NCBI GenBank assembly: GCA_002071685.1
Contig: MWBO01000031.1
Coordinates: 702-64,701, forward strand
From: a candidate division WS2 bacterium ADurb.Bin280
Lineage (GTDB): Bacteria; Patescibacteriota; UBA1384; DTJR01
Direction of reading: 5' to 3'
Length of the DNA: 64,000 nucleotides
Positions 3,302-64,000 of this stretch are shown in pieces (position 1 is the stretch's first letter; the number at the start of each line of letters is the position of its first letter). The translations under genes were made by a program, and so were the position numbers. The notes under the pieces were generated by a model, which ran no database searches, had not been told where the DNA came from, and saw only the letters and a list, made by a program, of their open reading frames with translations.

Positions 3302-3351
3302 TAACTCTCGACTTTGTCGAGAATGCCGTATCACCTCGGGAGGTGCGACAA

Positions 3352-3822
3352 ATGGCCGTTGCGGAGAAAAGGAAGGTGCAGCATCCGACATTTGCGCTCG
3401 ACTATGCTGTTTTGAGCGCAATGCTGGACGCAATGAAGTTGCCCGAAGATCTGAAAGAGTCAATCGCTCTGATCCCCGGGCTTCCCAAACCTGACGTTTC
3501 GCAGATCCTCGCAAGAGTATGTTCGGAGGTCGGATCTCCAAGCCACCGGATCCTCTGCAGGAGCCGCGGACTCGGAAAAGAGGAGCCGTTGAGCCAGTAC
3601 GTCGCCTTCAAAAGGATTGAGGCGGCTGATCGCATCATCCTCCGCGATAACGCCCTCGTAATCACTGGGCACCACTCACAGTGGCCAGAATACCTCGAGA
3701 TTCGGGTGAAAAATGTGGGCGACACAGGAGGTGTCGACGAGGGTGTCTTCGCAGTACTTCTGGCGACGGCCCTCTGGCGATGCAATCACCGCCTGATCAT
3801 CAACAGGTGCGAGGGTGACTAG
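3352..3822 (+). CDS. hypothetical protein, GC-rich island B (156 aa from ATG 3352)
   Basis: GGGAGGTG SD at 3338-3345, 6 nt before the ATG. The ORF is GC-rich, and its TAG stop is followed by a hairpin terminator. No family recognised. Confidence 0.5.
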   Translation: MAVAEKRKVQHPTFALDYAVLSAMLDAMKLPEDLKESIALIPGLPKPDVSQILARVCSEVGSPSHRILCRSRGLGKEEPLSQYVAFKRIEAADRIILRDNALVITGHHSQWPEYLEIRVKNVGDTGGVDEGVFAVLLATALWRCNHRLIINRCEGD

Positions 3823-3848
3823 TTCGCTTCGCGCACCGTCTCAATTCC

Positions 3849-3888
3849 GGCCGGGTGGCCTCAAAACCGCCCGGCCGTCGTCGTTTTG
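3849..3888 (+). terminator. intrinsic terminator of island B ORF
   Basis: GGCCGGGTGG / CCGCCCGGCC stem (one G-U pair), 8-nt loop, tail GTCGTCGTTTTGG. Confidence 0.6.
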
Positions 3889-3938
3889 GAGCAAGCCGAA
3901 TATCAAAAATACCTTCAAAAATACTTTTTATCTAAAAA

Positions 3939-5585
3939 TCAGAGCTTTCTAGGGTCGTTTGTGTTTTCTCCAAAAATAAATTCTTGCTTTGAACCTCTTT
4001 CGCAGTAATCAACTACAAAATCAATACTATCGCCTTGAACTATTGGTTCAATCTTGCTAATTGAAGTTGGACGGTCAGGAGCAACCAATTTCGCCCCATA
4101 CAAACTGGACATTTGCTTTCCTATTCCCTCGCTTTGACCAGTACTACAAGATGACAAAATAATTACCGGATTCTCTGCCAAAAAGGATCCCATTCTAGCG
4201 ACCCCCCTGCCAAACAAATCCTGAATATTGAGAATATGAGCGTGTTGTATGATCTCTTGCGCCTCTTGATCAAGTCTGTATCTTTCATAATCAAAACTTT
4301 CATAATTTTCATCAAAATAAGCGTTATAGTCTTTCATTATCACTTCTCGCGGTGTACCAAATTGAATCGAACTATGTGTCCCATGCCCGCCGATTATGGC
4401 AAAAGAAATTTTGTTTTGCTTTCCGTATCGCCTTTCAAGACCAGCAAGGCGCTTTGCTACTTCAAATTTTCCACCACCCTCAACAATTCTGACAGTAAAA
4501 TTTCCCATTTGATACCGATTTGCAAGATTTTCAAATATTTTCTTGGAGTAGAGGCCCCCATTCCAATCAGATTTAGGAAACAGAATTATTCCATATGGGC
4601 TGTGATGGTCCCTCTTTTCATATTGACCAATCAATAACTCAACGGGGTATCTCGAAAAAAATTCTATTCCAAACTCGTGATTGAGTACTTTGCAAATGCC
4701 GGGATGAAGGTCCTCGAGAGTCTCTATGCTTAATAAATTTTCCCCTATATGTCGCGAACGTCTCTGATCAGGATAAGTGGTTAACCAAGACTTCTTGAGC
4801 CCTCCCCAATCAAGATCGTATCTTTTTAAGAATTTTTCCAGCGATTCGTTTATTTCCTGATTATCGGATCCTGCAAGCGCACCCAATAATTCTACATGAC
4901 TTAAAATTTCGCAAAGATATTCCGAAGATCTATCCGTTGATCTATAGCTGTCAAGCTCGTAGCAAAAATCCTTCGCGTAGTCCTGACTGATTGGTGGATA
5001 TTCTCCCGCACTTTCAATGTTGTCAATATAAAAAGCAATGTCTTCAGGATGAGAAGGTTTCAAGTCCCTCAAGAGATATTTGTCTTCGGGATCGGCATAA
5101 TAGTGCATGAAAAGGGCGGCAAATTTATTCTCAATCTCTTCGTTTATTCTGTGATCATCCGGAGACTCCGTTTTCGTACAATAAAAAGATCTCGCAAGCG
5201 CCATAAAACCGGTCTGATAACCCTCTAAATTCGAGGCACGATCATAGAGCCTATCGAGTTGACCAAAGAAAAGTTTTTTCAGTTGCTCAATCTCGCCCTG
5301 ATACTTAGGACATCTGCCCGCATCATCGATAATCGACAGCAGAGAGTCAAATTGACGCTGGTCCATGTCATAGCACAGGGTACAGGCTTCATCTATGTAC
5401 TCAATAGAGCTTTTTTTTGACGAAACGTCACCTTCAAGTGGCTGGCCGTTTTCATCTGCCATCGCAAAGAAATTCAGCCTGCTAGATTTTGCTTCTTCGA
5501 GTGCAACATCAATAGCCTGACGATTAAACTCGACTTCTTGGTCAGACAAACCCTGCCCCTCGCTTGGATTGGGAGTTTCCCCCAT
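3939..5585 (-). CDS. hypothetical protein with a C-terminal CHAT/caspase-like (clan CD) His-Cys dyad domain
   Basis: The C-terminal ~200 aa show strand-motif order IILFP, VRIVEGGG, FAIIGGHGTHSS, VIILSSCSTGQ. These resemble the CHAT HG and LSAC-x-TG motifs. The gene starts 2 nt after the pnp stop. Confidence 0.45.
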   Translation of the reverse strand: MGETPNPSEGQGLSDQEVEFNRQAIDVALEEAKSSRLNFFAMADENGQPLEGDVSSKKSSIEYIDEACTLCYDMDQRQFDSLLSIIDDAGRCPKYQGEIEQLKKLFFGQLDRLYDRASNLEGYQTGFMALARSFYCTKTESPDDHRINEEIENKFAALFMHYYADPEDKYLLRDLKPSHPEDIAFYIDNIESAGEYPPISQDYAKDFCYELDSYRSTDRSSEYLCEILSHVELLGALAGSDNQEINESLEKFLKRYDLDWGGLKKSWLTTYPDQRRSRHIGENLLSIETLEDLHPGICKVLNHEFGIEFFSRYPVELLIGQYEKRDHHSPYGIILFPKSDWNGGLYSKKIFENLANRYQMGNFTVRIVEGGGKFEVAKRLAGLERRYGKQNKISFAIIGGHGTHSSIQFGTPREVIMKDYNAYFDENYESFDYERYRLDQEAQEIIQHAHILNIQDLFGRGVARMGSFLAENPVIILSSCSTGQSEGIGKQMSSLYGAKLVAPDRPTSISKIEPIVQGDSIDFVVDYCERGSKQEFIFGENTNDPRKL

Positions 5586-5587
5586 AT

Positions 5588-7774
5588 TTATTTTGCTTTT
5601 TTGATAGAAAGCGAAACTCTACCCTTTTCCGGGTCGATACCGGTCACTTTTACTTTGACTTTGTCACCAACTTTGACTTTGCACGAGACATCGGGAATTC
5701 TCTCGTCGCAGATCTCGCTAATGTGCACCATCCCGTCTTTATTGGGCAAAAACTTGACAATAGCACCGATCTCTTTGCCGGTGTTTCTATCTTTTTGAAT
5801 ATTGACGACTTCTCCATCGTAGATCTTATCAAGCTCCGGCTCAACTGTCTGACCTTCAACCATCGATTTGACTAGTTCGGCAGCTTTGGAATCGGCCGAA
5901 GAAATCATCACCGTCCCGTCATCCTCGATGTCAACTGCAACTACCTCTTTTCCACCAGCTTGGGCGATGATATTCTGAATATTTTTGCCCCCCGGGCCGA
6001 TTAATTCTCCGATTTTAGCGGGATTTATTTTGACAGTAATTATTCGTGGAGCATATTGGGAGAGTTCGATCTTGGAAGATGGAATGATGGAAAGCATCTT
6101 TTGCATGATGAAGTCTCTACCTACCTTCGCCTTCGTGAGGGTTGAGCGGATCATTTCCATTGAAAGTCCGTCGATTTTGACATCAAGCTGAATAGCGGTG
6201 ATTCCGTTTTTCGTTCCTGCCACCTTGAAGTCCATATCTCCACCAAAATCTTCAACACCTTGGAGATCCGTCAAGACAGCAAATTGGTATTTTTCGTCTT
6301 CTTCGATACCCTCGATCTCTACTTTCTCGCCTGTCTTTGGCCTTGAAACCATTCCCATGGCGATCCCTGCCACCGGCTCCTTGATCGGCACGCCGGCATC
6401 CATCAGGGCGAGAGTCGATCCACACGTAGCCGCCATCGAGGAAGATCCGTTTGACGAAAGTATCTCACTGACTAATCTGATAGTATAGGGAAATTCATCT
6501 TTGGAGGGCAAAACAGGGACCAAGGCCTTCTCCGCCAAAGCGCCGTGCCCTATTTCTCTTCTGGAAGCTGAGCCAACTCTCTTTACTTCACCGGTAGAAT
6601 AAGGAGGAAAATTGTAGAAATGCATGTATCTCTTGGTCGTGTCTTCTTCCATCGTATCGATGAACTGCTCCATCCCCGGACTTGCCAAGGTAGCTATGGT
6701 CAACGACTGGGTCTGTCCGCGAGTAAATAAACCCGAGCCATGAGCTCTGGGCAAGAGACCCGTTTTTATATCAAGAGGTCTTATTTCGTCTAGCTTTCTG
6801 CCGTCCGGCCTGATGCCATCGGCAAGAATCGTCTCTCTTACTTCTTTTTCCAAGAATTTATTAAAGACTTCTTCCAGATCCGCCTGTTTGTATTTGCCTT
6901 CAAAGGCCGTTAAGATCTCATCCTTCAAACTCTGGACATTGTCTTCTTTGGCGGCATTTTCTCGATCGAGCATTGTTTGGTGCAATCTTGAACCAATCAA
7001 TTCCTTGACGGCCAGTTGCATTTCAACAGTGTGATCTTCTACGGCAATCTTATCAGGATTGATGAAGGGTTCTTGAGCATCTATTAATTGATCGATGTAA
7101 GTTTGGGCGAATTCGATCGCTTCGACTACTTTTTCTTCGCTGATTTCCTTTGAAGATGCCTCAAGCATCAAAACTCTCTTTTTGGTTCCGACAACAACTA
7201 GATCGAGAGTGCTGTTTTCCATTTGTGATCTGAGAGGATTTGCCACAAACTCACCGTCGATCATACCAACACGAACGCCTCCGATCGGTCCCATGAATGG
7301 AGCCATCGATTGGCAAATTGCTGTTGAGGCGGCTAGTAGCGCCAACATATCAGGATCGTTCTCTTTATCAAAAGAAAGAGTCGTGATAATAACTTGGGTC
7401 TCATGCCTAAAATACTTGGGAAAAAGAGGCCTGATCGGGCGATCGATCATTCTTGAATTTAATATTGCTTGCTCGCTGGGACGACCTTCTCTTTTGATAA
7501 ACCTTGATCCGGAGATTTTTCCCGAAGCATAAAATCTCTCCTCGTAATCAATACTCAAGGGCATGTAATCCATGTCAGAGGGTTCTTTACCGACGACACA
7601 GGTTGCCAAGACCATTGTTCCGCCCGCTTGCGCTAGGATGGCACCGTCTGCTTGCATTGCTAATTCACCAGAACTAAGCCGCAGGTTTTGACCTGCGACG
7701 CTAAATTCTATCTCTTTCTTTTCCATTTTCCTCCAGAGATCGGGCCTAAAGCCTGAAATACGAACGTACTCCAA
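5588..7774 (-). CDS. pnp: polynucleotide phosphorylase
   Basis: Two RNase PH-like domains, FGGDMDFKVAGT motif, and KH and S1 C-terminal domains. Confidence 0.95.
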   Translation of the reverse strand: MEYVRISGFRPDLWRKMEKKEIEFSVAGQNLRLSSGELAMQADGAILAQAGGTMVLATCVVGKEPSDMDYMPLSIDYEERFYASGKISGSRFIKREGRPSEQAILNSRMIDRPIRPLFPKYFRHETQVIITTLSFDKENDPDMLALLAASTAICQSMAPFMGPIGGVRVGMIDGEFVANPLRSQMENSTLDLVVVGTKKRVLMLEASSKEISEEKVVEAIEFAQTYIDQLIDAQEPFINPDKIAVEDHTVEMQLAVKELIGSRLHQTMLDRENAAKEDNVQSLKDEILTAFEGKYKQADLEEVFNKFLEKEVRETILADGIRPDGRKLDEIRPLDIKTGLLPRAHGSGLFTRGQTQSLTIATLASPGMEQFIDTMEEDTTKRYMHFYNFPPYSTGEVKRVGSASRREIGHGALAEKALVPVLPSKDEFPYTIRLVSEILSSNGSSSMAATCGSTLALMDAGVPIKEPVAGIAMGMVSRPKTGEKVEIEGIEEDEKYQFAVLTDLQGVEDFGGDMDFKVAGTKNGITAIQLDVKIDGLSMEMIRSTLTKAKVGRDFIMQKMLSIIPSSKIELSQYAPRIITVKINPAKIGELIGPGGKNIQNIIAQAGGKEVVAVDIEDDGTVMISSADSKAAELVKSMVEGQTVEPELDKIYDGEVVNIQKDRNTGKEIGAIVKFLPNKDGMVHISEICDERIPDVSCKVKVGDKVKVKVTGIDPEKGRVSLSIKKAK

Positions 7775-8288: not shown

Positions 8289-9824
8289 TCACCATTTAGT
8301 AATAACCCTACCGCTTGCATCACGATCTTCTTTTGAGTCGTCCTCCTTGGACTCAATTGGTTCTTCAGAATTAATCTGGGGTTCTGTCAAAATTGCATCG
8401 GCTACTCTTTGAGCATCGCTTATAAGCTCATTTTCATTTGCGGTTTCGCTCTCACTTACCTCCTCTACTTTTGCTTCAAGAACACTTTTTTCAAAAACAA
8501 CCTCCTTGACCTGCTCTTGTTCGGTTTTTTCCGGTTCTTCAGCTTGCTCAGCCCCTTTGGTGCCAGTTTCGACATCTTCCACCGTTGGAGACACCATCTC
8601 TTCAGATTTTTCTGCCACAGTATTTTCGTCAGATTTTACTTCTTTTGCGAGAGGTTCATTGCCTACTTTTTCGGCACCATTGCCTTTTTGCATTTTAGCG
8701 ATTTTTTCCAAAATTGTTTGCTGATTGTCTTTGAGGGTTCCGTTAACTCTAAAGGCAGCAGCCACTTCGTGCCCTCCACCACCGAACGATTCAGCAATTC
8801 TGGCAACATTTACACCCTTGGCTATCGATCTCAACGAACCGTGGACATAACCCTGTCTCTCACTCAAAAGAAGTGCGAAATCAACCTCGGTTGCAGATTT
8901 GAGTAGTTCATCTATGACGCCCGAAAGAGCGCTTTCGTCCGCGCCAGTTTTCTCCAAGTCTTCTCTTGAAACCGATGAATACAAAAATTTGTTCTCTTTG
9001 TCCTCGCTCACCTTGGTCAAGACAAGCCCCCAAAGTTTAAGGGTTTCCATCGACTTCGTTTTGTACAAATTCTTGACGATCTCTTGCTGTCTGGCGCCTG
9101 CGGCAACCAATTGAGCAGCGATAGTTAGAGATTTTGGAGTGGTATTAACATTTTGGAAACTTGATGTGTCATAAATCAGACCGGTCAGAAGGCAGGTGGC
9201 CACATCTGCATCTATAATCTGATTGTCCTTAGAGAGAGATTCAAAAAGCGAGACCAAAATTTCTGAAGTTGATGTAGCAACCAGCTCAACAAGATTTATT
9301 TTGCCGAATTTCTCGTTTGAAGGATGGTGGTCGATATTGATGAGCGGTATTTCATAAAAGATGTCTAGAGATGGAGCGATTTCTCCAAGTCTTTCGATAT
9401 TGGGGGTGTCAACGCTGATAATCAAATCATATTTGGGCTTCGCCTGCGGAAAACTGATATTTTCAGCAGAAAATCTTCCCTTACCTCTTGGAGTTATGAC
9501 AATGTTTACAAGTTTTTTCCCCGAATCTTCCTTTTTGTAGCCAATTTTTTCAATTTCGACACTGCTTGTGTCGACGGAGATTATAAAATCGTCGGAGACT
9601 TCAATTTTTCTGCCTATTTCGCTTATTCTAGGTAAAAAATTAAAAATTTTGTTGGGAGCATCGGACGTTACACAATCCGTCTTTTTGCCCATTTTTTCCA
9701 AAACTATTTTCAATGCCAAAAGAGATCCTAGAGCATCTCCATCCGGATTTTTGTGTCCAACAAGAAGAATGCTCTGGGCACCCTTGATTAATTCACTCGC
9801 TTGTTGTTTTACACTTGCTTCCAT
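8289..9824 (-). CDS. DHH/DHHA1 phosphoesterase (NrnA-like) with an acidic C-terminal tail of about 130 aa
   Basis: GHKNPDGDALGS, NIDHHPSN and GGGGHEVAAAF motifs. Confidence 0.8.
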   Translation of the reverse strand: MEASVKQQASELIKGAQSILLVGHKNPDGDALGSLLALKIVLEKMGKKTDCVTSDAPNKIFNFLPRISEIGRKIEVSDDFIISVDTSSVEIEKIGYKKEDSGKKLVNIVITPRGKGRFSAENISFPQAKPKYDLIISVDTPNIERLGEIAPSLDIFYEIPLINIDHHPSNEKFGKINLVELVATSTSEILVSLFESLSKDNQIIDADVATCLLTGLIYDTSSFQNVNTTPKSLTIAAQLVAAGARQQEIVKNLYKTKSMETLKLWGLVLTKVSEDKENKFLYSSVSREDLEKTGADESALSGVIDELLKSATEVDFALLLSERQGYVHGSLRSIAKGVNVARIAESFGGGGHEVAAAFRVNGTLKDNQQTILEKIAKMQKGNGAEKVGNEPLAKEVKSDENTVAEKSEEMVSPTVEDVETGTKGAEQAEEPEKTEQEQVKEVVFEKSVLEAKVEEVSESETANENELISDAQRVADAILTEPQINSEEPIESKEDDSKEDRDASGRVITKW

Positions 9825-23613: not shown

Positions 23614-24566
23614 GCCTCGCTCCTTCTTCTTTTCTCAATCAGTTTAAAAACCTGATAAGCAAATTTACTGTTGATAAAATCATAGCTTCCAAGGATCTCA
23701 ACCGCCTGACCACCGAACTGCTCTTTAAACCTAGTGATCCCCGCCCACTTGGAGCCCGGATTATCAGGGGCACTTCTTCCTATCAGATCATAAAGCTTTG
23801 CGCCCTCTTCTTTTGCATCTACTATTATTTGCCAGTGCATCAAATATGGTGCCATCACTTCTCTGTTTTGGCTGGAGGACCCGCCGTAAAGATAACTAGC
23901 GACGCCATCATACATTGAAATCAAGGCAGCTGACAGGGGCTTGTTTTCGAAATAGGCAATGTAAACCCACAAGTACTCGGTTTGCTCAAAAGATTTCGCC
24001 ATTTCCACAAAGTACTCGCGCGATCTCCCGCCGATCCCTTCGCGCTTGACCGTCTGATTATAAATTTCAAAAAACTGGTCAAGGACAATTTTCTCTTTCT
24101 CACCAAATTCCTTGAGAGAAACTCTTTTTATTTGAACGCCTTTCCTTTGAGCTAATTTGACATTGTAACGCCCTTTTTGTTTCATTTGTGAAAGAATTGT
24201 CCCTCTGGTAGGTGTAAGATCAACAATTTGTCGCCATTTCGGCTGAACCTGTTCAAAAGACTTTTTAAAACCCATCGAGAGCAAAATTTTGTTTGCATTA
24301 TCACCATAACGATCAATTAATTCGAGTCGCAAAAAAATCGAATTATGCTGCTTGGCCATAGACTTCAATTGCTCTACTTGATTACCGCTTATCTGCGAAG
24401 AAGAGACTTCGGGAACATACAGAAAATTTTTTCCAAAAGGAAGCTGTTTTTTGTGAACAAAAAGATTGTCGGAAGAAATAATTTCAAATCCGAAGCTTTT
24501 TTTGAAATCCGCCCACTGTTTTGTTTGTAGAATTGAACCCATATTACTTATGTTAAATCTTATCAC
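23610..24566 (-). CDS. FemAB-family peptidoglycan aminoacyl-transferase
   Basis: Size and general FemX/MurM-like sequence pattern (paired acyltransferase-like halves). Confidence 0.65.
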   Translation of the reverse strand: MIRFNISNMGSILQTKQWADFKKSFGFEIISSDNLFVHKKQLPFGKNFLYVPEVSSSQISGNQVEQLKSMAKQHNSIFLRLELIDRYGDNANKILLSMGFKKSFEQVQPKWRQIVDLTPTRGTILSQMKQKGRYNVKLAQRKGVQIKRVSLKEFGEKEKIVLDQFFEIYNQTVKREGIGGRSREYFVEMAKSFEQTEYLWVYIAYFENKPLSAALISMYDGVASYLYGGSSSQNREVMAPYLMHWQIIVDAKEEGAKLYDLIGRSAPDNPGSKWAGITRFKEQFGGQAVEILGSYDFINSKFAYQVFKLIEKRRRSEA

Positions 24567-24596
24567 AAACAGGTAAAAATTACAGTATCGCCCTTC

Positions 24597-24625
24597 AATA
24601 TATTAAAACATCGTTTAAATATCAA
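24597..24625 (-). promoter_or_regulatory. candidate promoter of the femAB-pheST operon
   Basis: On the minus strand: TTGATA (24625-24620), 17-nt spacer, TATATT (24602-24597). Confidence 0.4.
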
Positions 24626-24640
24626 GACGGGGTTAAGTTG

Positions 24641-24707
24641 AGGCAAAAGCTAAACGGCTCATACGAGTGAGCCGTTTAAATACCACGGCCCCGGGTTTAC
24701 CGGGGCC
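24641..24707 (-). terminator. tandem hairpins terminating island C ORF
   Basis: First hairpin: GGCCCCGG-GTTTA-CCGGGGCC (24687-24707). Second hairpin: AAACGGCTCA-6 nt-TGAGCCGTTT (24652-24677), followed on the minus strand by AGCTTTTGCC. Confidence 0.55.
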
Positions 24708-24732
24708 TGAAGAGATGTACAAAGCCGAGGGT

Positions 24733-25173
24733 TCACGGGGCTTCGAAGACCTCCAGCACCCGAGCGTTGGAGAGCTCGAAGCCAAATCCGCCTCCGCTCT
24801 CGATCGAGCTCGAGAGAGCCTCCCCGAACAACCAGAGACGATCAGCGTGGCGGAGCTGGACAGGACGGATGGCAAACGACTGTCGCCCGACCGGTAAAAC
24901 CCGACAGGGCATCTTGAGGTAGCCATCCTGCTCGAACTTCCGCCTCTCCCGATCTCCGCTCAGGGTGAGCGGAAAGTAAGGAATAACTGCCCGAGCATCA
25001 CCCAAACGAAAGTGCAGATCGTAACGTCCCGAATCGACCATCCGGTCCGCACAGATGATAACAGTGGTGCTGGTGGGGCTGGCAAGAACGGCGCGCACTG
25101 ACAAGACGTCCGCCTCCTCGCCGTTTGATACACCGACGACGAGCAGGCACAGCACGACACAAATCGCCTTCAT
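24733..25173 (-). CDS. hypothetical secreted protein, GC-rich island C
   Basis: ATG 25173 has GGAG 8 nt upstream. The N-terminus MKAICVVLCLLVVGVSNG looks like a signal peptide. No family recognised. Confidence 0.5.
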   Translation of the reverse strand: MKAICVVLCLLVVGVSNGEEADVLSVRAVLASPTSTTVIICADRMVDSGRYDLHFRLGDARAVIPYFPLTLSGDRERRKFEQDGYLKMPCRVLPVGRQSFAIRPVQLRHADRLWLFGEALSSSIESGGGFGFELSNARVLEVFEAP

Positions 25174-25214
25174 GGGCCTGACTCCAAGTTTATTGAACGC
25201 CAAACGCTATGGCG

Positions 25215-25242
25215 ATTATACCCTTTTGACTTTCAAAATCAA
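25215..25242 (-). promoter_or_regulatory. candidate promoter of island C ORF
   Basis: On the minus strand: TTGATT (25242-25237), 16-nt spacer, TATAAT (25220-25215). Confidence 0.45.
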
Positions 25243-25265
25243 TCATTTTGCGCTAGAATGTCTTG

Positions 25266-48058: not shown

Positions 48059-49579
48059 ATGCCTGATGAAAAACAAATCAATAACGATCAAAATGAAGAA
48101 CTTGACACCAAAGAGGATGGTCCCGACTCTTTGCAAGATGCTTACGACGACTACGAATCAATACGAGATTTAATAAAAAAACCATCTGATAATAAAAATA
48201 AAGAAGACTCTAGTCAATCAAATCAAAAAGAAAACGAGCCTACCGCCGGTGAACGAGGGGCTAAAGAAGAACAAGCCGACCTCCGTCAAGCAGATAGCCA
48301 AAATGTAAACCCCAATCAATCGCCAGAGGGACAGGATCGGCGCCCAACCCAAGAAACCAAAGCACCACAAAATACAAATCCTCGTGCCAAGGAAAACCAG
48401 ACCGGCCAAGCAACGAAGGATGCAAGCGAAAGCAACCCAAAGTCAAGTGGGGCCGAAGAAGCTCGAGCACCGGAGAGAGCGCCTCAAGCACAAACCCAGA
48501 ACGCCAAAGGCACTCCGGCGACACAAGGCGAACAGGGTGCCAAGGGGGCACTTTCTCAAGCCGGCAAGACAGGAGCTAGCGCTGAAAAAAACCTAGCCGG
48601 CCAAGGACTGAAGGCTGGAGCAAAACAAGCGGGTAAGGAAGTGGCCAAAGAAGGAGCGCTTGCCGCCAGTCGCACAGCCGCGGCAGCCGCTGCGCCAGAA
48701 TCTATGGGAGCTTCCCTTGCCGCCCAAGCCGGAATCGAGGCTGCCTCGCGATCAGTCGGATTTATTCAAAAAAATTTTTGGCTGATTCTAACTATCGTAA
48801 TCGCCTTATCTTTTGTAATCGGCGGAGGATTTGCCTACACCTACTTGGCTAAATTCTTTTTCTTCAATAAATTGGGAGGCGAGGAGAAGCAATTGTTAAA
48901 CGATCTTCGAGATGGCGTCAAGCAAGAGCGTCTAGTGCTTCAAAACGATGAGGATATTCAAAAAATCGAAAAAGGCGTGGGAAGTTTTGTCGCAACTAGC
49001 TTGATAAACGAACTTAGCAATAACCACGAAAAGATCAAAATAAACTACCTCGGTTCGCAAGATTCCTCAAGTGGCAACGAGCCCTACGAGTTTGATGTTC
49101 TGGGAGCTGATATAATAAAGTGTGTGAACTTGGCAAGCTCATCAAAAGCGGGCGAGTTTTTTGTTGACTTTGGCCAAAGCGCTTGGCAACAAGAACTCAA
49201 GAATCTTGGGGCAAATACTCTTTGCGCCGTCGATTATTATCCGAAAATCGAGCAAGCAAAGACTGGCAAATACTCTGACCATTATCAAATCAGAGAGTTC
49301 AGCGCCGATCAAGCTGATGCCTTTATTGATAAAATAATTGCTTATAAGCAGGCACAAATAATTGATGAAACAGCCGACATTGCCGCTAACGAGCAAAAAC
49401 AGCAAGACAATTTGCTCGCACCGCCTGATGTCATCAGAGTTAGCGAGCAGGTGGTAAGCGGTTTGCCTCCCCAATTAATAGAAAAGGTTAAATCAGCCAA
49501 AAACTACTCGTCATTCTCTTTGGCAACCTTCCCCAAGGGTGCAAGTAATACGGCAATGCACATTAGTTATCTAGAATGA
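48059..49579 (+). CDS. bitopic protein: disordered N-terminal region, one TM helix, C-terminal globular domain (operon gene 5)
   Basis: Low-complexity Q/A/G/K-rich first 230 aa, a TM helix FWLILTIVIALSFVIGGGFAY, then about 250 aa of unknown domain. Confidence 0.5.
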   Translation: MPDEKQINNDQNEELDTKEDGPDSLQDAYDDYESIRDLIKKPSDNKNKEDSSQSNQKENEPTAGERGAKEEQADLRQADSQNVNPNQSPEGQDRRPTQETKAPQNTNPRAKENQTGQATKDASESNPKSSGAEEARAPERAPQAQTQNAKGTPATQGEQGAKGALSQAGKTGASAEKNLAGQGLKAGAKQAGKEVAKEGALAASRTAAAAAAPESMGASLAAQAGIEAASRSVGFIQKNFWLILTIVIALSFVIGGGFAYTYLAKFFFFNKLGGEEKQLLNDLRDGVKQERLVLQNDEDIQKIEKGVGSFVATSLINELSNNHEKIKINYLGSQDSSSGNEPYEFDVLGADIIKCVNLASSSKAGEFFVDFGQSAWQQELKNLGANTLCAVDYYPKIEQAKTGKYSDHYQIREFSADQADAFIDKIIAYKQAQIIDETADIAANEQKQQDNLLAPPDVIRVSEQVVSGLPPQLIEKVKSAKNYSSFSLATFPKGASNTAMHISYLE

Positions 49580-53596: not shown

Positions 53597-53633
53597 ATGA
53601 TAAATTTAACAGTTCGGACAAAATAATGAAAGA

Positions 53634-53666
53634 GGGCGGTGTGTGCGCATTGCGCACACACCGCCC
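53634..53666 (-). terminator. intrinsic terminator of the island D bicistron
   Basis: 15-bp perfect stem GGGCGGTGTGTGCGC / GCGCACACACCGCCC with a 3-nt loop. The minus-strand tail is TCTTTCATTATTTT. Confidence 0.6.
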
Positions 53667-53675
53667 CTTTGATTC

Positions 53676-54218
53676 TCAGCGAGCCCGAGCAAGCAGTAGC
53701 CGGCCGGTCGCTTGCATTTCCTGTCCGCGCTCAAGGCGATCGCCAACCTGCGAAGCGGCGAACGCCTTATACGCATAGGCGCGGTCGCCGTTACAGCACT
53801 CAAGCACTATCCGGAAGACGTAGTTGCCGGACCGGCCAACCTTCCTGACGATCTCAAGTGCCGCCTCGCCTGCGATCTTGCACTGGCGTCCTTCTTCGTT
53901 CCAGCCCACCAGAAAATCCAGGGCCTCCGCGCCACCATTGGCGCTCGGGACGATCACCAGAACATTCTGGTAGCCAGGGTTGTGTGTCGCATTTTCGCGA
54001 ACAGAGCAAATGGCGTTCCTCTCAAGCTTCCACGGGGGATTGGGCCGACTGTTGTCGATCAGAGCATTCGCTCCGACAACAAATGACCCGCCGTCCTTAC
54101 CGGCAAGTCCGCGAATCCTTTGTATTGCGCCAGATGTGACGTAAACGCCCTGGCCGTTTGGCGCCCTCCCAATCCCATATTTAGCGCCTGACGGCAGCTC
54201 TAGTGTCGCCTCTACCAT
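53676..54218 (-). CDS. hypothetical protein, GC-rich island D, gene 2 (180 aa)
   Basis: Its ATG lies inside the ATGGTAG overlap with gene 1. Codon structure looks coding, and a terminator lies 9 nt downstream. No family recognised. Confidence 0.5.
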   Translation of the reverse strand: MVEATLELPSGAKYGIGRAPNGQGVYVTSGAIQRIRGLAGKDGGSFVVGANALIDNSRPNPPWKLERNAICSVRENATHNPGYQNVLVIVPSANGGAEALDFLVGWNEEGRQCKIAGEAALEIVRKVGRSGNYVFRIVLECCNGDRAYAYKAFAASQVGDRLERGQEMQATGRLLLARAR

Positions 54219-54565
54219 TTCGCGACCTCCATGATCCTTGCGGGCTCGCCGATGATGAAGTATACCCGACCGGACTTGTCTGGATCGTGGATGATCATCG
54301 ACAAGCCAAGCTCGAGGTACAACTCTTCTTTCGGCTGATTCAGAAGAATCCTGGCCACAGCTGCCGCTGCTTGTCCGGCGAAAACGATCACCGCTTCGCT
54401 GACCGCGCTAGCCAATGTGTTGCGCGGTAGCTTGAGCTGCTGCTCGATCGCCTCCTTGCTGAGATGACAATGTACAAGACAGGGATCGCACGGCATCGCC
54501 AACAGGCAATCGTAGCCAGCTGGCACCCGCCACCACAAAACCTCACCATGAGCGAGGACGTACAT
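54212..54565 (-). CDS. hypothetical protein, GC-rich island D, gene 1 (117 aa)
   Basis: GGGAGGAG SD 6 nt upstream of ATG 54565. No family recognised. Confidence 0.5.
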   Translation of the reverse strand: MYVLAHGEVLWWRVPAGYDCLLAMPCDPCLVHCHLSKEAIEQQLKLPRNTLASAVSEAVIVFAGQAAAAVARILLNQPKEELYLELGLSMIIHDPDKSGRVYFIIGEPARIMEVAKW

Positions 54566-54652
54566 CGCACACTCCTCCCGCCAACCAAAGATAGGTACGA
54601 AAACGTATATTTTTTATCAAAAAATAGATCTTAAATCAATGCAAAAAGCTTT

Positions 54653-58068: not shown

Positions 58069-58424
58069 AAATTAAAAGTTAAAAATCAAAAATTAAAATG
58101 ATAATTAAAAAATAAAAAAGATTACAAAATTATTTTCTAGTAGCCAAAGCTACAGACAATGATAGAACCAGAGGGGCTTAATTGCCTGCCCTGTCGTAGT
58201 TAGCTAAATTGCTAACGAAGGAGGGCGAGGCAGCCCCTATGGTTCTATCGAATCCTTACGGCGCACGCTTGTTTCAAGAGCAAAAAATAAGCTTTTCTTT
58301 CTGGCAAACCCTCTCGACAAGTTTGCGAGCTTCCGCCAGAAGCAAAAAGCTTATTTTTCTTCCTGAAACTTTATTACATTACAAATACTTGGATTCTTAA
58401 TCCTTCATTCATCATTCTTAATTC
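58069..58424 (-). repeat. non-coding element copy L, inverted homolog of copy R
   Basis: Shares with 61382-61792 (as reverse complement) the GAATTAAGAATG head, a long AT-rich hairpin around the conserved CGCAAACTTGTCG, a GC-rich second hairpin (58161-58249) and the TTTTTAACTTTTAATTT tail. Confidence 0.55.
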
Positions 58425-58545
58425 TGAGATCTTAATTTGATAATTGCTTAATTGAGTTTGGGAGGGACGCGACCTCCCCAGAACGATGTTTCGAAAAGTG
58501 TGAGCCCCCAATGTGAGCTCGCGTCCCTCGGGTGTCCCGCGCGCG

Positions 58546-58716
58546 TTAGACACCGCCGACACAGGCGTTGTGCTCTTCGGCGCTCCTTTCGGCGCGCTCA
58601 AGCACAGCTAGCTCTACAGGCGTCAGAGCTTGACCGCTGTCCCTCTTCTCCGCGAGACTCGCGATGCGCTGGGCCTTTTCGGCATTTGCTTGTGCGGCTC
58701 TCGAACCTGCTGACAT
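58546..58716 (-). CDS. small hypothetical protein (56 aa), GC-rich island E
   Basis: AGGGAGGA SD 4-5 nt upstream of ATG 58716. Predicted helical, Ala/Glu/Arg-rich. No family recognised. Confidence 0.4.
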   Translation of the reverse strand: MSAGSRAAQANAEKAQRIASLAEKRDSGQALTPVELAVLERAERSAEEHNACVGGV

Positions 58717-58786
58717 GTCGTCCTCCCTGCGGTTCTGCCCCCGCAAGCGGGGGGTCGTTCTCCGTCGCGCGCGACGGGATATGATA

Positions 58787-58815
58787 ATTACAGCAAAAAA
58801 TTTCTAACAAGTCAA
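58787..58815 (-). promoter_or_regulatory. candidate promoter of island E ORF
   Basis: On the minus strand: TTGACT (58815-58810), 17-nt spacer, TGTAAT (58792-58787). Overlaps the stop of the upstream oxidoreductase gene. Confidence 0.35.
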
Positions 58816-59990
58816 GATAGGAGTTCTTTCAAGAGATCATCTGTTTTTATTTTAGTGCCCAATGATTGGCGGGCGATTTTCGTTTTTTGCAAAAGATTTA
58901 GAGTGCTTATGCCGACAACCTTGCCTTCCTTTTCAAAAATTGCTGCGTAGCGCTCGCCCGATGCCATATCACTCATCTGATATTTTTTATCGGCGCTTCC
59001 ACAGAAGAATAGCTGGCAAGACAAGACTTTTTTTGAAACCATCGTATATGTTTGCGACAAGACATCGCCTCCCGAGGCGTTTAAACCTGCTATTTTGCCT
59101 GATTCTTGAGCAAAAAGATAGTTCCCGGGCAGGCTCCACTCGTGTGAAAAAGGATCCTCGAACTGGCAAACATCTCCGCAAGCATAGACATCCTCAAGCG
59201 AACTGCGCATCCTTTTGTCAGTCACTATTCCCTTATCGATCGCCAAACCAAGCGATTTGGCAAAATCAAGATCTATCTTCAAACCTATTGCCGACACCCC
59301 TAGATCAAAATCAACCCTTTCTCCGTTATCAAGAATCGCTGTTCTGACGGCTTTTTCTGATGAGATTTTTTCTACTTGAGCGTTAGCAATAATCTTCACG
59401 CCCGCTTTTTGCAAACTTTTTTGTAAAATTTTTCCCCCCGCCTCACCAAGACGATTTTGCAAAAGATAGTCATCACGCATTATCAACACAATCTTTTTGC
59501 CAAGCTCAGCAAGTCCGTCGAGAAGGTCGAGTGTCAAGAAACCCCCTCCGACTACCAAGACTTTTTGTGCATTTTGCACCTTGTCCTTGAGATTGACAGC
59601 ATCTTGGAGCGAATAAAAACTCAAAAACGCATCCTGCGCACCCTGCACCTCAAGCCGTCTTGGCTGACCACCGCTGGCGATAATCAATTTATCAAATTCA
59701 ATCTGCTGACCGCTTTCCAGTTTGACCCTTTTTTCATCATAGCGCCCCTCGACTACCCGCCCCTTCGTCAACTCAATCTTGTATTTTTCATAAAATTGCT
59801 CACTTCGCAAAAATAACTTGTCTTTTGAAATTTTTCCAGAGAGGAAATGATGAAAAATTATTTTACTATAGAGACAATGCCCCTCTTGATCAACGACCAA
59901 AACCCTGCCCTCAGAGTCGTTTTCCCTGATAGCTTGAGCCGCCGCTATTCCGGCGGGCCCTCCGCCAATAATCAAATAATCGGTTTCCAT
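58812..59990 (-). CDS. FAD-dependent pyridine nucleotide-disulfide oxidoreductase family protein
   Basis: DYLIIGGGPAGIAAA and VLVVGGGFLTLD dinucleotide-binding motifs, plus an ACGDV motif. Confidence 0.8.
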   Translation of the reverse strand: METDYLIIGGGPAGIAAAQAIRENDSEGRVLVVDQEGHCLYSKIIFHHFLSGKISKDKLFLRSEQFYEKYKIELTKGRVVEGRYDEKRVKLESGQQIEFDKLIIASGGQPRRLEVQGAQDAFLSFYSLQDAVNLKDKVQNAQKVLVVGGGFLTLDLLDGLAELGKKIVLIMRDDYLLQNRLGEAGGKILQKSLQKAGVKIIANAQVEKISSEKAVRTAILDNGERVDFDLGVSAIGLKIDLDFAKSLGLAIDKGIVTDKRMRSSLEDVYACGDVCQFEDPFSHEWSLPGNYLFAQESGKIAGLNASGGDVLSQTYTMVSKKVLSCQLFFCGSADKKYQMSDMASGERYAAIFEKEGKVVGISTLNLLQKTKIARQSLGTKIKTDDLLKELLS

Positions 59991-60439: not shown

Positions 60440-61299
60440 TATTGCGCCTCCCTTTGATTAGTTTCAACAGGATCGCCCCCATTGTTCCCAATTGACTCAA
60501 GAAAATTTAGAAGCGCCTTTCGTTGTTGCTCTGATAAGTTACCAACAATTTCTTGAATCTGGCCGAGAGATCCTTCGGCTTGGCGAAGCGCTGCAAGCGA
60601 ATCTTGGCCTAATTCCGTCGGTACGGGTTGTTGGGGGGATGTGCCATTGGCGACGTCGGGAGTAATTGCTTCGTTACTTGGTTTAGGAAGGGGCAAGCCA
60701 CTCGTGTTTATAAACGAAGCAGTTTCGGGGGCTTCAGCGGTTATCACGGGAGCTTTTGGGGGTGGCGCGGGAATCGGAGAGGGCGCTTGGCTCTCAAGCT
60801 GATCACCGATTGCAACTTGGCCAAAGTTCATCTCATTTTTTTGGGTTTGGAATGATTGCGAAGGATCTTCCGTCGTGGCCGGCTGTTGCGGATCAACAGG
60901 CAATCCAGCGATGTGATGTTCAAGTGCAAGAGGATTATCAAGTGGCGGGACGGCATCGGGGTGAGAATTTTGATTTACAGGGGGCTCTTGTGCGACACTT
61001 GACTCTTGAGGTGGTGTATAGACAGGATTTTCGGCTACTGGTGGCTCGATCGGTATTTGAACCGATGGAGTGGGCTCGGGCGATGGCACAGAGACGGCTG
61101 GCTCTTCTGCAGTCAAATGATTTTCAGCTGAGGGAAGCGACGTTTCAGAGGGCGTCTCTATCGGAATTCGATTAGTAACAGGCGAATCGATAACTGGTGG
61201 CGTTTGGGGTGTTTCTTCTGGCAAGGCTTGTGACGGAACTTCCGGCCTAGAGACCTCCATACCGACCTGCCCAGTCTGCGGACCCTGATTTATTTGCAT
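60439..61299 (-). CDS. proline-rich hypothetical protein
   Basis: 286-aa ORF that is P/E/Q/S-rich with a short structured C-terminus. First gene of the minus-strand block. Confidence 0.5.
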   Translation of the reverse strand: MQINQGPQTGQVGMEVSRPEVPSQALPEETPQTPPVIDSPVTNRIPIETPSETSLPSAENHLTAEEPAVSVPSPEPTPSVQIPIEPPVAENPVYTPPQESSVAQEPPVNQNSHPDAVPPLDNPLALEHHIAGLPVDPQQPATTEDPSQSFQTQKNEMNFGQVAIGDQLESQAPSPIPAPPPKAPVITAEAPETASFINTSGLPLPKPSNEAITPDVANGTSPQQPVPTELGQDSLAALRQAEGSLGQIQEIVGNLSEQQRKALLNFLESIGNNGGDPVETNQREAQ

Positions 61300-61804: not shown

Positions 61805-62905
61805 CTACTTCCCATGGTGAAAATAGATAACATCCGCTTCATTGACAACATAGTCCTTGCCCTCAAGACGGACCTTCCCCGCCTCTTTCGACCCCTTCCA
61901 ACCTCCGAGTGTAATGAAATCTTGGTATGAAACTACTTCGGCTTTGATAAATTTATGCTCGAAATCTCCGTGAATCGCCCCGGCCGCCTGCGGAGCCTTG
62001 GAGCCCTTTTTTATCTCCCAAGCCCTCGCCTCCATTTCGCCTGCGGTGAAAAACGAGATCAATCCGAGCGTCGTGTATGCCGACCTGATTAGGCGATTGA
62101 GCCCCGGCTCTTCGAGCCCTAAATCGCTCAAATATTCTTGACGGTCAGATTCCATGAGATTATTGAGCTCTGATTCGGTCTTGGCACAAATCACCGCGAC
62201 CTCTTCGGTTTTCACTAGATCCTCAAGATCGAAGCGTTCAATAATCTCCTGCGGATCGCTGGTAGCATTTTCTTCCGAAACATTAAATACATAAAGAAAT
62301 GGCTTCAAGGTGAGAAAATTCGCCTCCTTAAGCAAGTCCGCCTCCTCCTCGCTCAAAGATGCTTCAATCGCCGGCCTTGATTTTTCAAAAGTTTCCAGAA
62401 CCTTCTGATAAGCAACTGTCTTTTTGGTCGCCAATTTATCCCCTGATCGAACATCTTTTTGAATAGCCGACAATCTTTTGTTTAGCGTATCAGTATCGGA
62501 CAGAATCAGTTCGGTAATGATCGTCTCAATATCATTTCTGGGTGATGGATTGGACGACACATGCATCACATCATCGTTTTTAAATATCCGAACCACCATG
62601 GCAATCGCGTCAACTTCGCGAATATGTGAAAGAAATTTATTTCCAAGCCCCTCGCCCTTATGTGCCCCCTCAATCAATCCGGCAATATCTACAAATCTAA
62701 CCGTTGCATTGACTATCTGCTTTGAATTTTCCACCTCTTTCAAATGTTCGAGACGATCATCCGGCACATCAACAATGCCGATATTTGGGTCTATCGTGGT
62801 AAATGCAAAATTTGCCGCCTCCGCCAACTCGCTCTTGAGCATGGCATTAAACAGCGTCGATTTGCCAACATTAGGAAGCCCCACAATACCTATACTAAGC
62901 GACAT
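61805..62905 (-). CDS. ychF: redox-regulated ATPase YchF
   Basis: GIVGLPNVGKSTLFNA P-loop, a TGS-like C-terminus and full-length similarity to YchF/OLA1. Confidence 0.9.
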   Translation of the reverse strand: MSLSIGIVGLPNVGKSTLFNAMLKSELAEAANFAFTTIDPNIGIVDVPDDRLEHLKEVENSKQIVNATVRFVDIAGLIEGAHKGEGLGNKFLSHIREVDAIAMVVRIFKNDDVMHVSSNPSPRNDIETIITELILSDTDTLNKRLSAIQKDVRSGDKLATKKTVAYQKVLETFEKSRPAIEASLSEEEADLLKEANFLTLKPFLYVFNVSEENATSDPQEIIERFDLEDLVKTEEVAVICAKTESELNNLMESDRQEYLSDLGLEEPGLNRLIRSAYTTLGLISFFTAGEMEARAWEIKKGSKAPQAAGAIHGDFEHKFIKAEVVSYQDFITLGGWKGSKEAGKVRLEGKDYVVNEADVIYFHHGK

Positions 62906-63013: not shown

Positions 63014-63054
63014 CCAACATTAGGAAGCCCTACAACTCCGATTGATAAAGACAT
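63014..63054 (-). pseudogene. orphan duplicate of the first 14 codons of ychF
   Basis: 31/41 nt match 62865-62905, and the first 17 nt are identical. It encodes MSLSIGVVGLPNVG, compared with MSLSIGIVGLPNVG in ychF, then loses homology. Confidence 0.55.
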
Positions 63055-63119
63055 AAATGACTCAATAATTAAAAAACTCAAACCACAAGGCTCATAATAA
63101 CAGGTTTGGAGAGATTCGT

Positions 63120-63145
63120 AAACGGCTCATTTGAGTGAGCCGTTT
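63120..63145. repeat. second copy of the AAACGGCTCA/TGAGCCGTTT hairpin
   Basis: Same 10-bp stem as 24652-24677. The loops differ at 2 of 6 nt (TTTGAG vs TACGAG). Confidence 0.7.
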
Positions 63146-63156
63146 ATTTTCGAGAT

Positions 63157-63195
63157 AAAAAAAAAGGGGGCGCGCTCCGTTAAGGAGCTGCCCCC
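63157..63195 (-). terminator. intrinsic terminator of the island F bicistron
   Basis: On the minus strand: GGGGGCAGCTCC-TTAAC-GGAGCGCGCCCCC followed by T9. It lies 16 nt after the stop at 63212. Confidence 0.65.
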
Positions 63196-63211
63196 GAGCA
63201 CTACGATACTG

Positions 63212-63559
63212 CTAGGGCTCGTTCACCCCGATTAGTTCGAACTCAACGACCCGATCGTCCGGAAGGGCAATGGCGAAATCTTGGTCACCACCTCCCCGAC
63301 GATAGATGCGAAGGTCGCTGTAGAAGCGCGTACCTTTGCAAATCGGCAGACTGTGAGCGGGTATCAATCCGCTCCCGACTGAGCGTGGCGGGCTCGAAAG
63401 CTCCACGACATGCACGAGCAGACCTTCGCCACTCGCTTCCTCGACACGTACAGCATATGACCTGTAGCTCCCCTTGTGTCCAATCTTCAGGCGAAACGTT
63501 CTACCCTCACAGGGGACTCCAGCAACAAGGTCAACCACTGCGTTGGCTTGAGCGTCCAA
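63212..63559 (-). CDS. hypothetical protein, GC-rich island F, gene 2 (115 aa, TTG start)
   Basis: GC-rich ORF with GAGG upstream and a strong terminator downstream. No family recognised. Confidence 0.45.
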   Translation of the reverse strand: MDAQANAVVDLVAGVPCEGRTFRLKIGHKGSYRSYAVRVEEASGEGLLVHVVELSSPPRSVGSGLIPAHSLPICKGTRFYSDLRIYRRGGGDQDFAIALPDDRVVEFELIGVNEP

Positions 63560-63587
63560 CTTCGCATCACCTCGAATCCTGTCTTCT

Positions 63588-63971: not shown

Positions 63972-64000
63972 AGCTCATCACTCCCTCGTGGTATCGTTCA

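Follow-up and report, generated by a model that had tools for sequence, protein, structure and literature searches.

A GC-rich single-gene unit for a predicted exported protein between tsaD and femAB-pheST in a candidate division WS2 genome

A stretch of 64,000 nucleotides (nt) from the genome of the candidate division WS2 bacterium ADurb.Bin280 (GenBank assembly GCA_002071685.1, contig MWBO01000031.1, positions 702 to 64,701), hereafter called the window, contains a GC-rich open reading frame (ORF) between the divergently transcribed tsaD and femAB-pheST. This ORF, annotated with the locus tag BWY43_00504, lies on the minus strand at 24733-25173 and extends from an ATG at 25173-25171 to a TGA at 24735-24733. 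It encodes a protein of 146 amino acids starting with MKAICVVLCLLVVGVSNG, and its GC content is 0.60 overall and 0.69 at third codon positions (GC3). The ORF listing pushes the frame upstream to a TTG at 25203, but the four close orthologues described below align from the ATG, which is therefore the start codon. A Shine-Dalgarno sequence, GGAG, was read from the sequence at 25182-25185 of the minus strand, 8 nt before the ATG. A consensus scan predicted a σ70-type promoter for the ORF, TTGATT-16-TATAAT, at 25215-25242 of the minus strand (10 of 12 consensus positions). The same scan placed a promoter-like site for tsaD, TTCAAA-16-TAGAAT, at 25232-25259 of the plus strand, with 6 nt between its end and the tsaD ATG (25266), which in turn lies only 24 nt from the −35 hexamer of the ORF. 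The ORF and tsaD thus appear to share back-to-back promoters, and the tsaD mRNA may be leaderless. Beyond the stop codon lie two hairpins, and a further promoter-like site, TTGATA-17-TATATT, was predicted by the scan ahead of femAB-pheST at 24597-24625 of the minus strand. In addition to tsaD, femAB, pheS, and pheT, the neighbors of the ORF include genes for a polysaccharide deacetylase and a VanW-domain protein. No integrase, transposase, or repeat was found bordering the unit, and no relic duplications of the flanking genes were found in the intergenic DNA of this GC-rich island. The genome is labeled candidate division WS2 by NCBI, and its nearest GTDB species representative (locus L004) is labeled Saccharibacteria.

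A search of 5.8 billion clustered proteins yielded three orthologues with 65-72% identity, and two distant members with 35-36% identity were gained when 1.84 billion representatives were searched with a profile. One of these distant members had previously been called too short, and its full ORF starts at a TTG. A second profile search gave no members beyond these six, and scans of the GTDB species representatives and JGI metagenome contigs with back-translated patterns gave no family member. Likewise, no relatives were found in other genomes, phage records, plasmids, IMG/VR, or viral contigs. The family consists of the close members in the window and in loci L001, L002, and L003, together with a distant subfamily in L084 and L085. 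All five related loci of the family have the ORF, whereas the more distant L004 has a different, GC-rich ORF in the slot. Used either as a single sequence or as a profile, the protein had no match in Pfam, NCBIfam, PHROGs, PADLOC, or the PDB sequences. The gene order of tsaD (divergent), ORF, femAB, pheS, and pheT was identical in all six loci; because these were obtained in six independent assemblies from different samples, a chimeric assembly is ruled out. The tsaD proteins of the ORF-carrying relatives are 70-82% identical.

When the ORF of the window was compared with those of L001, L002, and L003, the proportions of nonsynonymous and synonymous differences (pN and pS) were 0.17-0.21 and 0.50-0.57, respectively. 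The substitutions at codon positions 1, 2, and 3 numbered 30-39, 21-29, and 58-65. The ratio of nonsynonymous to synonymous substitution rates (dN/dS) of the ORF was 0.2-0.35, and its dN was approximately 0.19-0.25 compared with approximately 0.13 for tsaD, so that the ORF evolves faster than its neighbors. These results show that the ORF is a real protein gene under purifying selection.

The expression signals of the ORF were conserved along with the reading frame. Both hexamers of its predicted promoter, together with the bases surrounding them, are invariant in the alignment of the window, L001, L002, and L003, and TTGTTT-16-TATAAT occurs at the equivalent place in L084 and L085. GG(A/G)G is retained in all four close loci, and the Shine-Dalgarno region, conserved in these four, is recognizable in the two distant ones. 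The complementary block TTCTAGCGCAAAA at the promoter-like site of tsaD is invariant in four loci. The site ahead of femAB has an invariant −10 hexamer in four loci, and its −35 hexamer is variable (TTGATA, TTGTTA, and TTGCCA). Matches to the promoter and terminator consensus in the 2-kb stretch reached only approximately twice the number expected from shuffled sequences; the promoter and hairpin signals stand above chance because they are conserved in independent assemblies.

Hairpin 1, GGCCCCGG-UAAAC-CCGGGGCC, is located at 24687-24707 on the minus strand, 25 nt after the stop codon, and has an 8-bp stem consisting entirely of GC pairs (−19.6 kcal/mol, z = −2.9). The hairpins were folded individually for each locus, and alignment by MAFFT with RNAalifold misaligned hairpin 1 between the subfamilies. 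A GC-rich hairpin after the stop codon was present in all six orthologous loci, with energies of −19.6 to −30.6 kcal/mol and z-scores of −2.9 to −4.7. Its stem differs between the subfamilies, the arms being GGCCCCCGUC/GAUGGGGGCC in L084 and GGGCCCCCACC/GGUGGGGGCCC in L085. That the hairpin has been kept although the stem sequence differs supports a structural role. In the window, the bases after hairpin 1 are GUGGUAUUUAAA and do not form a clean U-run, and in L084 the U-run begins 7 nt later. The 96 nt spanning both hairpins of the window folded with −38.8 kcal/mol (z = −5.1). Hairpin 1 is the ORF's own 3′ hairpin, and with the putative promoter at its other end the ORF appears to hold as a self-contained single-gene expression unit, an autonomous monocistronic cassette.

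The initial annotation of this DNA, which was made from the letters alone, had described the same ATG, GGAG, and TTGATT-16-TATAAT and had proposed a self-contained cassette for a single gene. These elements were confirmed at their positions, and the comparison of the femAB-tsaD intergenic region across relatives, which it had suggested, revealed that the promoter hexamers of the ORF are kept in the four close loci and that the promoter and first hairpin are conserved among the orthologous loci. It had further proposed two tandem terminators that insulate the gene from a femAB promoter. Both hairpins and the promoter-like site (24625-24597) are present; hairpin 1 belongs to the gene as proposed, but hairpin 2 turned out to be a copy of a widespread repeat and occurs in only three of the six loci.

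Just upstream of femAB, a block of approximately 45 nt (ATTGAAGGGCGATACTGTAATTTTTACCTGTTTGTGATAAGATTTA, 24554-24599, minus strand) is nearly invariant in the four close loci and recognizable in L084 and L085. Its conservation exceeds that of the surrounding coding DNA, and femAB-pheST may have here either a regulatory leader or a second promoter, of the extended −10 type (TGnTAAGAT).

Codons 1-18 of the ORF (25120-25173, minus strand) encode a putative Sec-type signal peptide with a predicted cut before EEAD. This call is a rule-based reading of the residues. In the window, the sequence is composed of MK, AICVVLCLLVVGV, and SNG/EE, with Lys at position 2 and the small residues S and G at −3 and −1. 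The cleavage regions of the orthologues are VAGG/EE, VSAS/EE, VAVA/EQ, and ALA/QDD, and the Kyte-Doolittle mean of the hydrophobic core over 10 residues is 2.5-3.8 in the six members (3.8 in the window). The layout of a basic residue, a hydrophobic core, small residues at −3 and −1, and an acidic stretch is common to all six despite their differing sequences. Judged by these residues, the N terminus has the characteristics of a predicted Sec signal peptide of the signal peptidase I type, in agreement with the signal-peptide-like start noticed in the initial annotation. A lipoprotein signal peptide was rejected, since C5 and C9 are preceded by I or L and not by G, A, or S, and there is no lipobox; C9 is replaced by Tyr in member P0003, and C5 is missing from P0003 and P0005.

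There are 31 invariant positions in the alignment of the six members, including C41, C90, and the motifs HFRL, YFPxTLxG, and FGFE. AlphaFold2 supplied with the six sequences gave a structure of alpha and beta elements on which all five models agreed, with a predicted local distance difference test score (pLDDT) of 81.6 and a predicted template modeling score (pTM) of 0.76. With four sequences, one of five models was confident. A Foldseek search of the predicted structure against PDB and BFVD returned nothing convincing, the best query-normalized TM-scores being 0.33 and 0.37. The remainder of the protein had been described at the outset as unrecognizable, and it remained so both in the sequence libraries and in this structural search. 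Taken together, the gene product is probably an exported, disulfide-stabilized protein. It represents a candidate new fold, predicted to be exported by an organism whose surface biology has hardly been explored.

The GC content over 24700-25199 is 0.57-0.62, compared with 0.425 for the window and 0.33-0.40 for the adjoining intergenic DNA. The values at the first, second, and third codon positions of the ORF (GC1, GC2, and GC3) are 0.65, 0.46, and 0.69, respectively, against a background of approximately 0.49, 0.35, and 0.41, and every one of the ordinary long ORFs of the window has a GC3 of 0.30-0.52. The GC-rich coding part pointed out in the initial annotation is thus borne out, the ORF having approximately 60% GC in a window of 42.5% GC. 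Among the six members, GC is 0.59-0.64 and GC3 is 0.64-0.80, whereas the flanking genes have a GC3 of 0.37-0.45 and the contigs are 43-47% GC. Third-position A accounts for 0.08-0.13 in the members compared with 0.27 in the background. The third base is mostly G or C even at codons whose amino acid is conserved, and the mature protein has 14 Arg to 2 Lys.

The divergence at fourfold-degenerate sites between the window and L001, L002, and L003 was 0.45-0.52 for the ORF and 0.53-0.57 for the flanks in three of four comparisons, the exception being femAB of the window versus L001 (0.71). This similarity to the flanks indicates that the ORF has diverged together with its neighbors. Between the two subfamilies, pS was 0.64-0.82 and therefore saturated. 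Since both subfamilies are still GC-rich at saturation, a single import followed by neutral decay toward a GC3 of approximately 0.41 cannot explain the composition. In our own calculation, in which the mutational equilibrium GC3 was taken as 0.41, a scaled bias of approximately 1.3 gave a GC3 of approximately 0.72 and a substitution rate of approximately 86% of the neutral rate. The latter value agrees with the slightly lower fourfold divergence of the ORF.

The slot between tsaD and femAB was occupied differently in L004, whose tsaD is 61% identical. L004 carries a non-homologous GC-rich ORF of 104 amino acids at 4573-4887 (minus strand), with a GC3 of 0.69 and no signal peptide, and its terminator at approximately 4500-4552, a hairpin of −48.5 kcal/mol, is very strong and has a U-run. 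In L084, a GC-rich two-gene island without a counterpart in the window lies between pheT and dnaA (6920-7683); its genes encode 111 and 143 amino acids, with a GC3 of 0.77 and 0.64 and no Pfam match. Divergence near the slot was also mosaic: between L001 and L002, pS was 0.27 for tsaD and 0.79 (saturated) for vanW. This contrast indicates homologous recombination among lineages close to the slot.

Orphan ORFs that are unrelated to one another occupy about seven GC-rich islands of the window. Further islands of 55-57% GC lie at 1-602, 3332-3922, 53598-54608, 58424-58822, and 63147-64000, most of which carry small ORFs with a GC3 of 0.59-0.73. Two others, at 48321-48808 and 60550-61288, fall inside longer ORFs of ordinary GC3, where they encode low-complexity segments. 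ORFs from the islands of the window and of related loci showed no mutual similarity and no significant match in Pfam, PHROGs, or PADLOC, and a search of the literature on GC-rich islands of Patescibacteria gave nothing of relevance. A two-gene island at 53676-54565 (minus strand), encoding 117 and 180 amino acids with overlapping stop and start codons, is conserved in L206 at 3354-4246, in the same slot between ftsX and proS. Its genes have a GC3 of 0.62-0.67 and a dN/dS of 0.27, and a terminator hairpin shows compensatory changes. The synonymous divergence of this island was 0.28-0.40 compared with 0.68-0.75 for the flanking genes, which points to either constraint or more recent exchange.

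Two further observations were made at the ends of the window. A hairpin at 545-565, GGCCCGGG-TTCAA-CCCGGGCC, followed by a T-rich tract, closes the first GC-rich island and closely resembles hairpin 1 (GGCCCCGG-N5-CCGGGGCC). At 63015-63055, a degenerate copy of the first approximately 14 codons of ychF (MSLSIGVVGLPNVG; 62863-62905, minus strand) precedes the genuine start of ychF by approximately 150 nt. This duplicate adjoins a copy of the palindrome described below and a GC-rich island, and it may be the scar of a recombination-mediated insertion.

Hairpin 2 (24651-24678) is a 28-nt palindrome, TAAACGGCTCA-N6-TGAGCCGTTTA, with a perfect 11-bp stem. Only five of the pairs are GC, so that the stem is moderately GC-rich, and on the ORF strand its last bases are UUUA, after which comes GCUUUU. 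The window has a second copy at 63119-63146, where none would be expected by chance; its arms are identical, and it borders the 3′ edge of another GC-rich island. Among the orthologous loci, the arms are present in the window, L002, and L003 and absent from L001, L084, and L085; because L001 lacks the palindrome and its close relatives have it, the element has been gained or lost between close relatives. In L001, the position that the palindrome occupies in the other three close loci, after hairpin 1 and ahead of the femAB promoter, is taken by an AT-rich insertion of approximately 230 nt (approximately 8495-8800).

An exact-pattern scan of metagenome contigs gave at least 120 matches (L086-L205), and the same kind of scan found none in viral contigs. 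The contigs among the matches listed are 28-54% GC and, judged by their record names, come in part from marine sediment and from 0.1-µm groundwater samples. At 114 distinct sites among the matches listed, the palindrome was located between convergent genes in 33 cases, between tandem genes in 38, between divergent genes in 5, and inside ORFs in 3. Such a distribution, dominated by convergent and tandem sites, is the signature of a 3′-end element. The genes upstream of it, named by reading translations and not by a family search, encode ribosomal proteins, GroEL, H+-pyrophosphatase, GyrB, and DnaE, and several flanks end, by eye, in apparent tRNA 3′ ends. The spacer is variable and often palindromic as well, and the stem is often lengthened by locus-specific complementary bases. 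Half-sites were paired in 250 of 259 cases. Variant copies numbered 14 in 745 kb of palindrome-bearing loci versus 0 in 726 kb of unrelated genomes. A GC-rich flank, more than 2 standard deviations above the contig mean, accompanied 7 of 68 sites, and three of these seven are the two copies of the window and the orthologous copy of L002. The palindrome had no match in Rfam, and no mention of it was found in the literature searched. It behaves as a putative bidirectional terminator-like element. A role as a DNA uptake sequence (DUS) was rejected on the basis of the paired half-sites, the 3 of 114 listed sites inside ORFs, and the low density of 2 copies per 64 kb.

In L114, L134, L147, and L169, the palindrome directly adjoins the 3′ end of a gene for a small protein (98-128 amino acids) that is of one kind in all four loci, with an N-terminal hydrophobic segment and a C-terminal ...LGVSD(A/S)TATRY(L/A)DELE...GRGVYY. 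The C-terminal motif looks like a winged helix-turn-helix. This association may be a coincidence, or it may reflect a link to a DNA-binding protein.

The explanation that we favor, with about even confidence, is that the ORF is an old resident gene, vertically inherited and monocistronic, whose GC content is actively maintained. The conserved σ70-type promoter, back-to-back with that of tsaD, would drive a transcript of approximately 0.5 kb, and the GGAG ribosome-binding site would direct translation of the 146-amino-acid precursor. The N-terminal Sec signal peptide would bring about export and be cut before residue 19, and the released protein of approximately 128 amino acids would consist of alpha and beta elements with two invariant cysteines. 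Its role would be extracytoplasmic and perhaps envelope-related; the neighbors femAB, the polysaccharide deacetylase gene, and the VanW-domain gene are cell-wall genes, and an envelope role is a guess of rather low probability. Transcription would stop at the gene-specific GC hairpin, with the palindrome copy as a backup in three of the six lineages, and this termination would keep read-through off the femAB-pheST promoter. The high GC content would be old and roughly stationary and no trace of a recent import, and its most likely cause would be a weak, gene-local force favoring G and C. In keeping with this explanation, the second GC-rich island (53676-54565) shows similar behavior in L206. 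We lean towards selection on the transcript, through its stability, its structure, or its G/C-ending codons, as this force; the alternative is that the locus, an accessory one prone to recombination, undergoes GC-biased gene conversion.

Several results weigh against an old, resident gene with actively maintained GC. The different GC-rich ORF of L004 indicates that the slot can turn over. By the Muto-Osawa relations, GC1, GC2, and GC3 of 0.65, 0.46, and 0.69 are typical of a gene native to a genome of approximately 60% GC, and with such codon positions a foreign origin at some point is possible. Polarized third-position changes comprised 27 from GC to AT and 7 from AT to GC, which looks like decay. 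This count was dropped as proof of amelioration, because a simulated stationary GC-rich model yielded 19-27 versus 8-9 through parsimony bias. The folding of the mRNA was likewise ambiguous. Compared with synonymous-codon shuffles, the coding sequences of four of the six orthologues folded better (z of −2.1 to −5.4), as did 10 of 14 island ORFs at z ≤ −2, whereas eight ordinary gene segments of the window gave z-scores of −0.8 to +1.6. However, the coding sequences of the window and L084 scored only −0.95 and −0.23, and the signal is unspecific, since z ≤ −2 was likewise obtained for two of six GC-matched segments of ordinary tsaD genes, taken from genomes with 57-61% GC. The excess of mRNA folding is thus suggestive only.

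The most serious rival, which we regard as possible but unlikely, is a foreign cassette that came from an unsampled donor of approximately 60% GC, acquired local promoter signals, spread by homologous recombination through the tsaD and femAB flanks, and is ameliorating slowly. All three codon positions fit such a donor, and there are sharp shifts in composition at the Shine-Dalgarno site and after hairpin 1. The different ORF in the L004 slot, the extra two-gene island that L084 has and the window does not, and the mosaic divergence, with tsaD of L001 and L002 close and vanW of the same pair saturated, are in keeping with it. So are the low synonymous divergence of the 53676-54565 island relative to its flanks and the degenerate ychF 5′-end duplicate beside another island, which suggests recombination-mediated insertion. 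Nevertheless, neither 5.8 billion proteins nor the phage, plasmid, IMG/VR, GTDB, and JGI sequences yielded a relative other than the six at the syntenic loci, and the unit borders bear no integrase, transposase, or repeat. The fourfold divergence of the ORF about equals that of its flanks, and a GC3 of 0.64-0.80 across saturated subfamilies would need at least three separate imports into one slot. The foreign gene domesticated under local signals that the initial annotation proposed is therefore partly supported at best: neither a donor nor a phage or plasmid relative was found, the ORF diverges like its flanks, and the saturated subfamilies remain GC-rich. The same annotation had held that homologues uniformly GC-rich in AT-rich relatives would count against a foreign origin and would point to a composition driven by amino acids. 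Such homologues are indeed what was found, all in the same slot, but the fallback does not fit GC3. That the codons of Arg, Ala, Gly, and Pro alone account for the composition would agree with GC1 and GC2 lying above their background and with the uniform GC-richness of the homologues. However, the most shifted position is the third (0.69-0.80 versus approximately 0.41), codons of conserved residues still end mostly in G or C, and 14 Arg versus 2 Lys is a near-neutral choice that tracks composition and not function, so that this explanation is very improbable.

We give equally little credence to an integron-like or Xer-like mobile cassette with the 3′ palindromes as recombination sites (dif/pdif of the 11-6-11 form, or attC-like). 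Hairpin 2 does have perfect 11-bp arms around a 6-bp spacer, both window copies are at the 3′ edge of GC-rich islands, and the slot content differs in L004. Yet each island has one palindrome copy and no flanking pair, three of the six orthologous loci have none, and elsewhere the palindrome follows housekeeping genes and tRNAs (114 distinct sites among the matches listed) and is not generally beside GC-rich DNA (7 of 68 sites). The hairpins are also short and perfectly paired and show neither the extrahelical bases nor the GTTRRRY core of attC, and no recombinase gene was present among the neighboring ORFs. Least credible of all is a structured RNA of which the ORF is a by-product, GC-rich sequence being poor in stop codons. 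A GC-rich island in an AT-rich genome is often the sign of a structured RNA, either strand of the transcript region folds more stably than its shuffled versions (z of −3.6 and −3.9), and other frames of the island also hold ORFs of 50-97 amino acids. Against this stand the codon-periodic substitutions with a dN/dS of 0.2-0.35, the start codon, Shine-Dalgarno sequence, and signal-peptide layout kept at 35% identity, the confident AlphaFold2 model, and the lack of any Rfam match even at E = 10, trivial hairpins aside.

Extended beyond a single gene, the reading of a resident gene with maintained GC suggests, tentatively and with less than even confidence, that this clade, whose genomes are 42-45% GC, holds a set of small orphan genes at approximately 55-64% GC by a gene-local force favoring G and C. 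The secreted-protein ORF and the 53676-54565 island would belong to this set, as would further genes of the window and of its relatives, each of them a unit with a promoter and a terminator of its own between housekeeping genes. The force would be either selection on the transcript or biased gene conversion at accessory slots. If this is true, composition would mark a durable accessory-gene compartment and not recent import, which is the reverse of the rule of AT-rich, ameliorating orphans. Atypical composition is routinely read as recent transfer, and in this clade that inference would mislead. If the other GC-rich orphan islands agree, they would offer a compact natural setting in which the effects of transcript selection and of biased gene conversion in bacteria could be told apart.

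Among known systems, the unit resembles the morons of phages, which have reportedly been described by Juhala, Hendrix, and colleagues as autonomous promoter-ORF-terminator units of atypical composition between conserved genes. The likeness consists of one ORF with its own σ70-type promoter and hairpin terminator, wedged between conserved genes whose composition and function are unlike its own. In contrast to morons, however, the ORF is chromosomal, between tsaD and femAB-pheST and outside any prophage context, it is kept at one slot across relatives, and no phage relative was found. Like the ORFans of genomic islets, it is short, restricted to a narrow clade, faster evolving than its neighbors, and compositionally atypical. 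ORFans and recently acquired genes are said, after Daubin and Ochman in 2004, to be typically more AT-rich than the host genome; the polarity here is reversed, with a GC3 approximately 30 points above that of the host that persists across synonymous saturation. Integron cassettes share with it the single-ORF unit ending in a palindrome and, as in L004, a differing slot content. Unlike such cassettes, the ORF has its own promoter, no array, and no attC architecture: the stems of 8 and 11 bp are perfect, GCCGTTTAG does not fit GTTRRRY, and no integrase- or recombinase-like ORF was found within approximately 3 kb, the rest of the window not having been scanned for integrases. Hairpin 2, moreover, occurs after ordinary genes throughout other genomes.

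The palindrome itself is comparable to the inverted DUS pairs of Neisseria and to the repetitive extragenic palindromic (REP) sequences and bacterial interspersed mosaic elements (BIME) of enterobacteria. It shares with them a repeated, sequence-conserved inverted repeat outside genes, a preference for gene 3′ ends including convergent pairs, and several copies per genome. DUS and uptake signal sequences (USS) are mostly single, whereas nearly all half-sites of the palindrome are paired, and its density, with 2 copies in the 64-kb window, is low. REP sequences are species-specific, whereas the same 22 arm bases recur in contigs of 28-54% GC from many environments. The palindrome represents a sequence-conserved 3′-end element common to many uncultured genomes. 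The ORF beside it adds a new protein family to a known type of unit, the orphan and moron-like islet, and is unusual in its reversed composition, which persists.

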